From positions 1 to 35,239 of the IMG/VR virus record IMGVR_UViG_2718218139_000010: a DNA stretch of 35,239 bases, one strand, 5' to 3'. How positions within the stretch are numbered: the stretch's first letter is position 1; each line of letters opens with the position of its first letter. Positions 18,001 to 21,000 of the stretch are shown here, piece by piece. The position numbers are program-made. The DNA is from a virus. Its lineage: Duplodnaviria; Heunggongvirae; Uroviricota; Caudoviricetes.

Positions 18001-21000
18001 TGAATCCGCGATTACCCCATATTCCTTCTTGCTGATTGCCCCACCGCACAGGGGGATTCACCATGCAGAAGTGTTTTTAATAAACAGCAAACAAAAAAAT
18101 CAAGCATTATGCAGGCTGTTTCTTTTTATCACCGGCCACAGCAATACCACAATGCCGCAGACCAGCACCCCATCCGCCAGCACCGACATGATTCTGCTGG
18201 TGAAATCCACCATCACCACCAGAAACAGCAGGAGTGCAGCCACAGCCAGGCGCAGTTTTACCGTCACAGGTGATTCTCCAGACGAAGACCCAGAACACCG
18301 GCAATCTCTTCCAGCACCTTGCGCTCTTCCGGCTCAATTTCGCCGTCTGCCTCCGCAATGGCCACCGCCACATCCAGCACATCTTCCGCTTCACGCGTAT
18401 CGTGTTTCACATCCTCGATCTCACGTAACGCGGCACGACGACCAATTTTAAAATTGGTATCCAGCTGACCGATAATGGTTGCGCTAATCGCATTAATTTC
18501 CGAGGTAAACGCAGACAACGCAGGCTGATTACGTAAGACCTGTTCGATCTTCGCTTTCTCGGATGCCTCGCATTCACCATCTGCACAGGCCTCCAGGTAT
18601 GCAGCGTTAATCACCGCCTGTGCCAGATCGCGTTTTTCAAACTTTTTAATTTCCGTTGCCGCTCTGCGGGCTTTTTTTACCAAAAATACCAAACATCGTG
18701 ACGTTCCTTTGGGTGGGTGAGCCAGCACTCAGGAATGATCAGCCCACAGAGACAGTCACACCGACCGTTCCCTATGGCTCCCCCCCCTGAAAGGCTCTGT
18801 GGTTGAATTGCGCCGAGCGTGGCGCGAAGAATTTCGGACATAAAAAAACCCGCTCAGCGGCGGGCCTTGCTTACTTTGCTATCGCGTACAAAATCGGCAA
18901 AATATCAGATTTACATGAAATGTACGCGATTTAATTGATTTTTGCAACATCTCGTCGCAAAAAGGTCGCTTTTTGTTTAGATCTCGTTTTCACAGTGCAA
19001 ATCAAAGATTTGGTGTCCAGAGCCTTAAAAAGATCGCACATCTCACGCCAGTAGTTCGCATAATTATGGCTCCAGTTATCAGGTTTAATTCCACACAGCC
19101 TGGCAAGCTCCTGTCGCTGGTAGCTCTCACGCCCGGTTACCCATCCCCTGACATCCTGCGCCGCCAACCAGATTAATTTTTTCAGGCGTTCCTGCGTTTT
19201 CCCTGCAATTTTTCTGGTACCGGATTGAGCATTAAATTCATTCCACGCCCACTGAGTTATCGCGATCTGATATTCCCAGCAAATGCTGCCACTGTAACAC
19301 AACAGCAACCAGGCTTTATGGTGTTCCTCAAGAGACAGAACTGCCCGTCGCCATGATGATGTCGAAAACTCAACCTGACTTACCAGAGGAATTGACGTCC
19401 CCTTCGCCAGCGATTGTTTCCCCGGGATTGGTGGATTATCCCGCGTGATCATTTTTCCGGTCACCTCATCCCGGTACCGGATTTTTTTACGCCTGTAACG
19501 CCCTGTATCGAACATGGCATTCTCCTGCCAGGCTTCAAGCTGACCTTTTGTTGCCTCACTCAAATCAGCGGTGGCGATAATGAGCTGCTCACGCACAAAC
19601 TGTAAATACTGGTTATTCATGCGCACTCCAGTTCTGTGATTTTTATCCCCAGCCGCCCACCAGAAACGAGCTGACCGCGCACAATATTGATTTCATCAAA
19701 CTGCTCGTCGTCTATGAGAAGTCCGGCATGCGTCAGCGCATCCAGTGGTGCTTTCAGGATATTGTCCAGGTCACGACGGCGCTTATCCGGTGGCTCTGCA
19801 ATAATCTTTATCACCAGCCTTCCGGACAGGTTTAATTTCAGCCGCTGCTGGCGAACAATTAGCGCCACATCACGGCGATAACGCTTTCCGGCTTCCGAGA
19901 TGAAATACGTATTGCCATGACGTCGCCAGTAGGTATTCACCGTCGGCGGGTAAGGCAAAACAAATTCTATGCGTTCAGTCATTCATGCTTTCCACTTCAG
20001 GACACCCGAATTTCTCGCGTGCATTAAAAAACGAATCAGCAACAACAGCTGGCTGCCGTGTTTTTCTTCAAAATCTTTTACCCCGGCGTGCAGTTCGTTA
20101 TGACATTTACGGCACAGCGGAATAACAAACAAATCATCAGCCTTTGTTCCCATCCCTCCCAGTCCATGACCAATGATGTGATGCGGATCATCTGCCTGAT
20201 TACCGCACGTCATGCATTTCTGCGTTTTTACCCAACGCGTGTATACAGGCATCTCTTCCCGTTGTGGTTTCTGGCGCTGGAGATACTGAGCCGGTGACTC
20301 CGGATCAACGGCAATGCTGACCACCGTCTTTTCCTGTGGTGGGTTCTGTTGCTGGTGGACGTGAGGCAGCGGCGCAAGATTTTTTGTGCGCTGCTTCAGT
20401 ATGCTGGTGGCGGTCTGCTCTCCCGGCACGATGTCGCTTTCACGGTACATTGAGCGGATTTTTTCCGCACGCAACCCCAGCGAACGACGTAATACCGCTT
20501 CCGGTAGCGCGTCCGCCACCTGATTGCGGACCGCCCACCAGGATAATTCAGCCAGAGATAATTCACGCTCCTGCGTACCGCTTATTGCGTGACCGATGAC
20601 GTCAATCATCCATGCTGACAGGTTTTGATGAGCAAGTTGCTCGAGTGATTCGGATGTCTGGTCACGCAACTGGTTGTCGCAGTGCCAGCACAACACCATT
20701 GCGCCGGTACCGTAACGATGTATGACGGTTTCACTGTGATGATAATCGCCGTGTGGCCACTGGCAGGATTTAATATGGCGCAACAGCCAGTCAGACAATG
20801 CACCAGCACCACCAGCAGCACGAATCACCCGTTCGTTACTGAAAAACGGCAGTAATGATTTATCCTCCGCCAGCGGCTGGCGAACGGCAGGAACGACTCC
20901 GGACGGCAGACCGCGCATACTTTTCGGTTCCGGTTCCACCAGTACTCTGCCGTTATGGAATACCTGCATGGATTCACGGCCTGGCTTAACGATAACCAGT

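Follow-up and report, generated by a model that had tools for sequence, protein, structure and literature searches.

The window, that is the whole stretch of 35,239 nucleotides analysed here (positions 1 to 35,239 of the IMG/VR virus record IMGVR_UViG_2718218139_000010, Caudoviricetes), carries on its minus strand two small overlapping genes which, judged from their sequences, are almost certainly the phage cargo module tciA-tciB (Table 1). The pair lies between the late antiterminator gene Q with its tR'-like terminator on the upstream side and a nanS-p-like esterase gene and a holin gene on the downstream side, in the slot where Stx phages carry stx. A preliminary description of this DNA had placed the two ORFs in the moron slot that follows pR'/tR', and the neighbouring genes bear this placement out. 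The two ORFs lie where they had been drawn, with their GTGA overlap, and they are genuine genes by their Pfam and PHROG matches and by their dN/dS ratios.

Table 1. Features of the tciAB locus and its surroundings (coordinates in the window)
Feature	Coordinates	Strand	Description
P21-type holin gene	15193..15468	-	First gene of the lysis cassette; Pfam Phage_holin_2_1, 2.1e-32
nanS-p-like sialate O-acetylesterase homologue	15842..17692	-	Pfam DUF1737, SASA, DUF6645; conserved ORF closing the moron slot
AgvB anti-GcvB sRNA	17840..17901	+	Rfam RF02702, 91.7 bits (gathering score 56), full length, CACAACA motif
STnc100 sRNA	17902..18095	-	Rfam RF02076, 143.1 bits (gathering score 47), full-length model
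31-aa ORF	18012-18107		Overlaps the tciB stop, inside STnc100
tciB	18100..18267	-	55 aa, GTG start; Pfam DUF3927, PHROG 1470; two transmembrane helices predicted
tciA	18264..18692	-	Stand-alone TerB-domain protein, 142 aa from TTG 18692; Pfam TerB, PHROG 632
ORF opened by the conserved family ATG (18696-18694)	18646..18696	-	Only 16 codons here, out of frame
Leader of the tciAB cassette	18697..18825	-	Shine-Dalgarno sequence AAGGA at 18705-18709
tR'-like intrinsic terminator	18845..18868	-	Directly after Q; 9-bp stem, then a T-run (terminator scan)
Late antiterminator gene Q	18931..19626	-	Pfam Phage_antiter_Q, 2.6e-82; upstream of tciAB

TciA matched the Pfam TerB profile (PF05099) with 44.5 bits (cut-off 24.4, E=2.2e-11) over profile positions 9-109 of 118, and PHROG 632 at 5.6e-64, while the TciA family profile could be aligned almost end to end with KP-TerB, whose structure has been solved (2JXU; residues 14-137 against 20-144, E=5.1e-16). 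The AF2 model of TciA is an all-helical bundle of seven helices (mean pLDDT 82.2, pTM 0.77). When this model was compared with the PDB by Foldseek, the best match was 2H5N, which we take to be a TerB-like structure (probability 1.00, TM 0.53), and 2OU3, a COG3793 tellurite resistance protein, was also listed (TM 0.45); the E-values were weak (0.017 or worse) and the fold assignment thus rests mainly on the sequence profiles. Two acidic ADGE...E motifs (D39/E46 and D117/E124, of the form D-G-x5-E) are invariant in eight phage TciA proteins, down to 27% identity, and align with SDGVSSEEK and SDGNFDDDEK of KP-TerB; the paired acidic motifs of TerB have been proposed in the literature to be a putative ligand or metal site. 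KP-TerB, which belongs to the terZABCDE(F) cluster, is also of similar size (151-153 aa against 142-143 aa for TciA) and consists of a single TerB domain that can be aligned end to end with TciA. It is therefore near certain, as far as sequence comparison goes, that TciA is a stand-alone, full-length homologue of TerB of the terZABCDE cluster, and the preliminary assignment of the larger ORF to the TerB-like proteins was correct.

TciB matched Pfam DUF3927 (PF13064) with 62.3 bits (cut-off 25, E=4.3e-17, positions 2-50 of 53) and PHROG 1470 at 4e-30. Its homologues share an invariant motif, D-F..L.DG.LV....P..K, the core of which is common to P1 and the N4-like phage Pollock in the alignment, and those that carry the motif have two hydrophobic segments (17-residue hydropathy window) joined by a D-F-T/S-S loop. 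The small ORF, first read as a tiny membrane protein, is thus a member of a conserved family with two predicted membrane helices. The TGA stop of tciA and the GTG start of tciB overlap in the tetranucleotide GTGA (bases 18264-18267, minus strand), and a GGAG lies 8 nt ahead of this GTG; from this arrangement tciB is predicted to be translationally coupled to tciA. The dN/dS ratios, 0.04-0.12 for tciA and 0.26-0.30 for tciB, indicate purifying selection on both genes.

The association of the two genes extends far beyond the window. Nearly all of some 66 parsable close loci in IMG/VR encode a 143-aa TciA and an intact TciB of 52-57 aa and have the GTGA overlap. In data restricted to one genome per species, 17 loci were parsed, and in 14 the distance between the TerB stop and the start of the DUF3927 ORF is 0 or -3 nt; these loci belong to Pantoea, Pseudescherichia, Enterobacter/Franconibacter, Dryocola, Serratia, Symbiopectobacterium, Pectobacterium, Oceanisphaera and an unclassified proteobacterial MAG, with TciA identities down to 42%. 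The preliminary description had suggested a search for the pair in other prophages, where a missing or disrupted small ORF would have counted against a functional unit; the pair does recur, and in nearly every homologous locus an undamaged TciB lies next to TciA. Altogether, tciA and tciB are neighbours in phages of the lambdoid, P1-like, virulent N4-like and Erwinia jumbo types, and prophages of at least nine genera have them side by side as well; the TerB and DUF3927 genes likewise adjoin or overlap in P1, Pollock and Asesino. The share of E. coli is large: of 5426 complete genomes, 2873 had a match to part of a 1-kb query and in 641 the match extended over at least 80% of its length, while the exact TciB sequence is present on 966 contigs and the exact 142-aa TciA on 12 E. 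coli contigs. The partners are not always found together, since phages 434 and 2B8 carry TciB without TciA, and TciA and TciB are thus not strictly interdependent; in Pseudomonas phages the TerB gene is accompanied by a different coupled ORF with a single transmembrane segment. Natural TciA-TciB fusion proteins found in databases (P0134, P0183) are frameshift products.

The pair had not been recognised as a described system. It is in fact already known, being named and catalogued in Pfam and PHROG, and the window adds nothing new in this respect: tciA and tciB are named in the GenBank record of phage P1 (AF234172, 2004), from which we take the origin of the names, they are also annotated in JLK-2012, and ECs_2749 of the Sakai prophage Sp14 is annotated as a 'TciA/TerB-like protein'. 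P1 resembles the window in the identity and order of the two families, in the overlap of the second start with the first stop (1 nt, against 4 nt in the window), in a TciA that is 40% identical over its full length and in a TciB with the D-F..L.DG.LV....P..K core; like most lambdoid copies, it also has tRNA genes near tciAB. Unlike the window, P1 has a third gene, tciC (35 aa), and its tci genes lie just upstream of ban and not in a Q-controlled late slot. No TciC-like ORF was found in the window and the other lambdoid copies lack tciC as well, and we therefore do not treat it as a defining component. The 31-aa ORF downstream of tciB has no obvious similarity to P1 TciC and was rejected as its analogue: its length is mostly conserved, but most of its substitutions are non-synonymous and several alleles encode a shortened version. 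In E. coli O157:H7 Sakai, the Sp14 pair (ECs_2749 and ECs_2748) occupies the same slot, after Q and before a 616-aa esterase gene, at ~94% nucleotide identity to the window, and its TciB differs from ours by 2 residues. The Q/PR' segment is only ~77% identical between the two, and Sp14 has the ileZ-argN-argO tRNA genes between Q and tciA, whereas the tRNA genes that usually precede tciAB are absent from the window.

The order Q, tciAB, holin/endolysin is also found in five other genera, where the Q types differ; the Franconibacter helveticus Q protein whose gene precedes tciA is 63% identical to that of the window. Directly after Q, the tR'-like terminator, which has an annotated counterpart at the same relative position in phage 434, would end a short PR' leader RNA; the prophage leader RNAs isrK and isrJ gave Rfam matches near tR' that were below threshold. 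Homology to other tciAB cassettes starts near position 18825 (blastn of the window against related loci, alignments from query position 176). On the other side, STnc100 begins 5 nt after the tciB stop and is convergent with AgvB. A candidate -10 element, CATAAT, is present at 18105-18110, and the sRNA may have a promoter of its own or may be a processing product of the tciAB 3' end. The terminator scan placed a terminator at 17914-17931 on the minus strand, 169 nt past the tciB stop; this terminator belongs to STnc100, and the pair does not have the private one that had been attributed to it. Nor is the slot with its convergent sRNAs undescribed: the succession of Q, PR', a moron CDS, convergent sRNAs and a conserved ORF is exactly that of the EHEC moron slot published by Tree et al. 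2014 (PMC4104026), where the subject is the sRNAs rather than the tciAB cargo. The moron CDS of Sp5 is stx2 and the function of AgvB is described in the same study (PMC4104026), while STnc100 is transcribed in uninduced EDL933 (PMC5331693).

When the tciAB genes are expressed can be suggested from the anatomy of the locus. A consensus scan of the minus strand from 17600 to 19100 found no sigma-70-like promoter, and we rejected an independent tciAB promoter on this ground, although the scan was crude and missed PR' as well; an internal promoter active in lysogens may therefore exist. Because no promoter of its own was detected and because the module lies between the PR'/tR' unit and the holin gene, we favour, with some reserve, a Q-dependent and late expression, in which antitermination by Q would account for most of the transcription of tciAB, the first protein-coding genes on the late transcript. 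This proposal is confined to the lambdoid context and does not extend to the whole tciAB family, since in P1, N4-like and jumbo phages the genes are not next to lysis genes, and in P1 they lie outside the late region.

What the proteins might do there is a more tentative matter. Literature searches for tciA/tciB, DUF3927 and prophage TerB returned no functional experiment beyond the non-essentiality of the three tci genes in P1 (PMC10695390). TerB is reported as a partner of the integral membrane protein TerC in a passage of PMC11003894 that cites Turkovicova 2016, and TerB proteins are described as amphitropic and are paired with membrane proteins in Dionysus (bioRxiv 10.1101/2025.09.30.679545). 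By analogy, TciB could insert a small hairpin into the cytoplasmic membrane and the acidic helical bundle of TciA could dock on it from the cytoplasm, as reported for TerB with TerC; this contact between TciA and TciB is suggested by the coupling of their genes alone. The complex would then alter the inner membrane of the infected cell or monitor its state and, until programmed lysis, protect the cell against agents that act on this membrane, such as colicins that form pores, oxidative and membrane stress or the entry of DNA from superinfecting phages; tciAB would be the minimal version, carried by a phage, of the Phi/PacB phenotypes attributed to the ter cluster. We regard this membrane-protection mechanism, taken by itself, as possible but rather doubtful. 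The identity of the pair, its late expression and its action at the membrane, considered as one explanation, are nevertheless the best account that we can offer, and we give it about an even chance (roughly 0.5).

It is tempting, if speculative and in our opinion rather unlikely, to see in tciAB and in the Pseudomonas pairs of TerB with a coupled single-TM peptide a broadly conserved phage device, a TerB protein with its membrane anchor, that would control the inner membrane of the host. Such a device would be used by temperate and virulent phages alike, possibly to block the entry of competitor DNA or to neutralise membrane-depolarising defences, and would be the phage-side counterpart of the TerB modules found in bacterial defence systems. 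Purifying selection maintains tciAB in phages that differ as much as P1, the lambdoids, the N4-like podoviruses and the jumbo phages of Erwinia, and this, with its presence in the Shiga-toxin slot, gives the question some weight: to assign a function to tciAB would be to explain a very common prophage cargo and could clarify what TerB domains do at membranes.

Other functions have to be weighed against this proposal. The pair could be a defence or abortive infection system expressed in the lysogen, in which TciA would sense infection or a membrane perturbation and gate TciB, a pore or depolariser that would kill or block the cell and spare the lysogen population. TerB-type proteins do stand beside membrane or pore-forming proteins in validated systems (DinB with DinC in the Dionysus system DinABC, and also Bunzi and Shango), for which membrane surveillance has been proposed (10.1101/2025.09.30.679545), phage inhibition and colicin resistance have been attributed to the ter cluster (PMC7371120), lysogenic-conversion cargo is typically carried in this slot and the neighbouring sRNAs are expressed in lysogens (PMC5331693, PMC4104026). 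Those systems, however, are chromosomal host defences of three or more genes, whereas tciAB is a two-gene module of phages, virulent ones included, and TciB was not found to be homologous to DinA or DinC. A known defence system was also rejected on the PADLOC-DB v2 search, where TciB had no match and TciA only a weak one to PDC-S48 (E=0.0023 over 35 residues), and the promoter scan found nothing between tR' and tciA. The genes are also present in N4-like and jumbo phages that are strictly virulent, where the protection of a lysogen is impossible, and a role in lytic growth fits this distribution better than a defence restricted to lysogens; the lone TciB of phage 434 would moreover be awkward if TciB were a toxin held in check by TciA. 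We thus consider the defence function improbable, and less so than an accessory regulation of lysis timing, in which TciB would be a holin- or antiholin-like hairpin modulated by TciA. This latter idea draws on the small size of TciB, its two TM segments and its short charged C-terminus, which recall class II holins, and on the position of tciAB directly upstream of the holin gene in lambdoid prophages of six genera. TciB nonetheless resembles no holin family of Pfam or PHROGs, in P1 and in the N4-like and jumbo phages a long distance separates tciAB from the lysis genes, and lambdoid phages that lack tciAB lyse normally, all of which makes a role in lysis timing very improbable. The product name given in databases, finally, would make the pair a determinant of tellurite resistance. 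Homology to TerB of the tellurite-resistance operon is its basis, but terZ, terA, terC, terD and terE are all absent next to tciAB: the neighbours of tciA in the window are Q, the DUF3927 gene, the sRNAs and the esterase gene, and no terC, terD, terE, terZ or other ter gene was found among them. The membrane partner, a 55-aa hairpin, is unrelated to TerC, and tciAB, unlike the ter cluster, is phage-borne and occurs in very different phage types. The subclones reported to confer resistance carry several ter genes, for example terBCDEF (PMC11003894), and the authors of the PMBT3 study came to the same conclusion for a lone phage terB (PMC8421299); we give hardly any credence to this function.

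A further rival reading concerns the state of the copy in the window. The ATG conserved in the family has an AAGGA Shine-Dalgarno sequence 8 nt upstream and is in frame in the aligned Evi and JLK-2012 sequences. Here, it is out of frame because of a one-base insertion in an A-run (18672-18678) which has seven A in the window (A7) against six (A6) in the closest alleles (L137, L154, L174), and it opens a dead-end ORF. The only start for a full-length TciA of 142 aa is a TTG four bases downstream of the ATG and 12 nt from the Shine-Dalgarno sequence; in the Sakai record, where the A7 allele is the same, the gene is likewise annotated from this TTG. The longest ORF begins at a GTG (18264-18728, 154 aa), but GTG 18728 was rejected as the start, since no homologue has the extension and the Shine-Dalgarno sequence and ATG are conserved further downstream. 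The module of the window is probably poorly expressed or decaying, because the ATG is out of frame, the TTG is weaker and the prophage is defective, with a truncated endolysin gene next to an IS3-family element. It could even be a mere remnant, in which the A7 frameshift has silenced tciA and nothing functional is made. That the gene decays in some lineages is indicated by a nonsense codon near residue 45 in 30 of 46 full-length A7 sequences (44 IMG/VR loci, the window and Sakai), and the homopolymer is not conserved (the Evi-type alleles read AAAAAGAAAA), which argues against a programmed shift. On the other hand, the 135-codon body of tciA and the whole of tciB are intact in the window, the in-frame TTG can share the Shine-Dalgarno sequence of the ATG and is where the annotated proteins of this allele start, tciB has its own GGAG, and a separate Sakai Sp14-like A7 clade of 11 alleles has kept an intact body. 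A silent remnant is therefore a serious possibility, though we would put it below even odds.

The A-run itself deserves a comment. Exact-pattern counts in IMG/VR gave A7 on 47 contigs and A6 on 45, and A7 was found in at least three allele backgrounds; this near-equal frequency and the several backgrounds brought up the idea of phase variation. A programmed frameshift or phase variation was rejected: the run is not conserved, most A7 copies have the nonsense codon and the sequence is not a canonical +1 slippery heptamer, and a mutational hot spot seems a simpler reading of the polymorphism. There is also a consequence for annotation, as the native start does not lie in frame in roughly half of the IMG/VR copies with this allele type, and the TciA length given by gene callers varies (142, 120 or 116 aa).

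The TerB-like gene and the small membrane-protein gene are tciA and tciB (probability about 0.95), a pair that already has its names, is a very common and ordinary cargo of prophages and sits in a genomic architecture that has been published. All genes of this finding lie on the minus strand, as read from the ORFs of the window sequence, and the two-ORF observation of the preliminary description was correct as to coordinates. Minus-strand bases 18267-18264 read GTGA, so that the TGA stop of the larger ORF and the GTG start of the small ORF share four bases; GGAG lies 8 nt 5' of that GTG. 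The TerB call was also right: the larger product matches Pfam TerB (PF05099, E=2.2e-11, 44.5 bits, cut-off 24.4) and phrog_632 of PHROGs ('tellurite resistance', 5.6e-64), and a profile built from eight TciA proteins of phages hits the solved structure of Klebsiella TerB, 2JXU (E=5e-16, residues 14-137 of 143), with both acidic DG...E motifs inside the match. The AlphaFold2 model of TciA is a seven-helix bundle (pLDDT 82, pTM 0.77); against the PDB, Foldseek gave weak E-values, with 2H5N as top match (probability 1.00, TM 0.53) and 2OU3, a COG3793 tellurite resistance protein, lower in the list. The smaller product matches Pfam DUF3927 (PF13064, E=4.3e-17, 62.3 bits, cut-off 25) and phrog_1470 ('TciB-like inhibition of cell division or resistance to colicin', 4e-30), and has two hydrophobic helices, an invariant D-F-T/S-S loop between them and a C-terminal P-x-x-K. 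In pairwise Nei-Gojobori comparisons with related alleles at dS ~0.5, dN/dS was 0.04-0.12 for tciA and 0.26-0.30 for tciB, and these low values indicate that both are coding sequences under constraint. The data show that TciA is a stand-alone TerB and TciB a conserved predicted membrane hairpin.

Features of the tciAB region and its surroundings
Feature	Position	Strand	Details
DUF968 and RusA genes			5' of tciA, alongside Q
Q antiterminator gene	18931-19626		5' of tciA; 2.6e-82
Intrinsic terminator	18868-18845		directly after Q
TerB-region longest ORF	18728 to 18264	minus	154 aa, GTG start
Small ORF (tciB)	18267 to 18100	minus	55 aa, GTG start
STnc100 sRNA	17902-18095	minus	full-length model, 143 bits vs gathering score 47
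AgvB anti-GcvB sRNA	17840-17901	plus	convergent with STnc100; full-length match, 91.7 bits vs 56
Esterase gene			616 aa, DUF1737/SASA, nanS-p type; downstream of tciB
P21-type holin, DUF1327, IS3-family element, truncated lysozyme gene, Rz, small terminase			downstream, listed after the esterase

The pair had been taken for an undescribed system, and this was wrong: it is already named in P1, in the O157 Sakai prophage Sp14 (ECs_2749, 'TciA/TerB-like protein', and ECs_2748) and in phage JLK-2012, annotated there as tciA and tciB, and its architecture is published (PMC4104026). A megablast search located the 1-kb region in 2873 of the 5426 complete genomes of E. coli, with coverage of 80% or more in 641. 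The TciB of the window occurs without any change on 966 contigs, its TTG-started TciA on 12.

tciA and tciB are inherited together, as a coupled pair, in phages of very different kinds. In nearly all of the ~66 close IMG/VR relatives parsed, TciA is 143 aa long, the junction reads GTGA and TciB, of 52-57 aa, is intact; the exceptions are loci at contig ends, a single nonsense allele and a single fusion. In a one-genome-per-species collection, the DUF3927 ORF starts 0 or -3 nt from the TerB stop in 14 of 17 parsed TciA loci, which represent nine genera or lineages with TciA identity as low as 42%. The genes also lie side by side in P1-like phage-plasmids, in the jumbo phage Asesino of Erwinia, whose gp7 can be aligned over its full length with the TciB profile (hhalign probability 87%), and in N4-like Schitoviridae that are virulent (Pollock, FSL SP-058/076, TR2, UTK0002). 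Absence or disruption of the small ORF, or a larger protein unlike TerB, had been named beforehand as grounds against the pairing; nearly all homologous loci keep the small ORF intact, and the larger protein is TerB-like. Phages 434 and 2B8 carry TciB without TciA; in 434 (L004, 2558-3545) its gene follows that of a 247-aa multi-pass membrane protein, likewise in the post-Q slot. In Pseudomonas phage AF (L008, 1914-2135) and a P. juntendi prophage (L194, 3441-3644), an unannotated single-TM ORF of 67-73 aa, unrelated to DUF3927 and with the common motif SC.WYGYQTER...GWVPR, has a four-base overlap with the TerB gene's stop. This looks like a second type of small membrane partner for phage TerB. 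The theme of a phage TerB with a coupled small membrane protein is therefore wider than DUF3927. There are also single polypeptides of 170-197 aa: two database proteins (P0134, P0183) bear both a TerB and a DUF3927 domain, and in the IMG/VR locus L085 a 195-aa ORF reads through the tciA stop; one of the three is annotated 'zinc-finger family protein'. They seem to have arisen by frameshift at the GTGA junction of close E. coli relatives.

With Q and its terminator on the 5' side and the esterase and holin downstream, the pair occupies the PR' moron slot, the stx site of Stx phages, as the preliminary description had proposed. The window is without tRNA genes, both between tR' and tciA (18729-18845) and elsewhere; two or three (CAT-anticodon Met/Ile-type, Arg-TCG, Arg-TCT) are present in 31 of 39 related E. 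coli viral contigs, and likewise in Sp14, their 3' end ~170 nt before tciA. Homology of the window to these tRNA-bearing cassettes starts at ~18825.

Expression of tciAB in this lambdoid setting is probably Q-dependent, the genes being made with the late genes upon antitermination; a promoter scan detected no promoter for tciAB after the Q-controlled terminator. By analogy with the reported TerB-TerC partnership (PMC11003894) and the 'amphitropic' behaviour ascribed to TerB, TciA may dock on TciB from the cytoplasmic side of the inner membrane, and the complex would alter or monitor this membrane in the infected cell, protecting it from DNA entry by superinfecting phages, from pore-forming colicins or from membrane stress; phenotypes of this kind have long been associated with the ter cluster. 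As a whole this mechanism is tentative. That strictly virulent phages carry the pair speaks for a benefit in lytic growth and not solely in lysogens, and a lysogen-expressed abortive-infection or exclusion module, with TerB as sensor and TciB as effector, seems unlikely to us; PADLOC gave no significant match for either protein, the sole match being weak and partial (PDC-S48, E=0.0023). The order Q, tciAB, holin/endolysin recurs in prophages of Pantoea, Pseudescherichia, Enterobacter and Franconibacter, whose Q types differ. All three P1 tci genes were non-essential in a CRISPRi screen (PMC10695390). That tciAB is a lysis-timing accessory is very improbable. True tellurite resistance, which the annotation in matched E. 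coli genomes evokes ('tellurite resistance TerB family protein | DUF3927 family protein'), can hardly be credited. A literature search found no paper testing tciA or tciB function.

Every TciA homologue starts M-F/L-G-x-F/L-x-K-K, from an ATG with AAGGA 8 nt upstream. In the window this ATG (18696-18694) is out of frame and opens just a 16-codon ORF: the A-run at 18672-18678 counts seven A, against six in the closest alleles (L137, L154, L174). Full-length TciA is possible only from a TTG at 18692, 12 nt from the SD, giving MVFLVKK instead of MFGIFGKK, and the Sakai record uses TTG for its seven-A allele too. Exact-pattern scans of IMG/VR found seven A on 47 contigs and six on 45; the former occurs in at least three allele backgrounds, and 30 sequences of the largest also have a nonsense codon near residue 45. 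Since the equivalent lysines are written AAAAAGAAAA in other alleles, the homopolymer is not conserved; we take the run to be a mutational hot spot and not a programmed device. Truncation leaves the phage lysozyme gene with 111 aa (profile positions 34-125 only), and it adjoins the IS3-family element (orfA 13405-13707, orfB 13743-14561; 12993-14561 region), and the prophage looks defective for lysis. The seven-A run and this truncation beside an IS element suggest that the module is weakly expressed or decaying here; neither the tciA body nor any part of tciB is damaged. That the module of this one prophage is a decaying remnant is possible, and compatible with the family-level explanation. 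A second copy of the orfA-orfB pair, with equal lengths, lies at 32879-34035.

The pair had also been credited with its own terminator, which did not survive: the terminator at 17931-17914 is the 3' end of the STnc100 model, whose match begins five bases past the tciB stop. The arrangement follows the general plan of EHEC lambdoid prophages, with a moron CDS after PR', convergent sRNAs and a conserved ORF (Tree et al. 2014, PMC4104026). Uninduced EDL933 transcribes STnc100 copies, some with ribosome footprints (PMC5331693), and TerB is among the typical flanking genes of related prophage sRNAs (2026 preprint). A minus-strand CATAAT at 18105-18110, within the final tciB codons, would set a transcription start at ~18095-18098, matching the start of the Rfam STnc100 model. 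Within STnc100, a minus-strand 31-aa ORF (MLDFFVCCLLKTLLHGESPCAVGQSARRNMG, 18012-18107) begins 8 nt before the tciB stop. Its length is kept in 95 of 116 related sequences, its substitutions are mostly non-synonymous and it is truncated in some alleles; in others a frameshift joins it to TciB, giving 84-aa 'DUF3927' proteins. A match to the DicF antisense sRNA lies in the prophage early region (29411-29462, plus strand, 55.9 bits vs gathering score 48).
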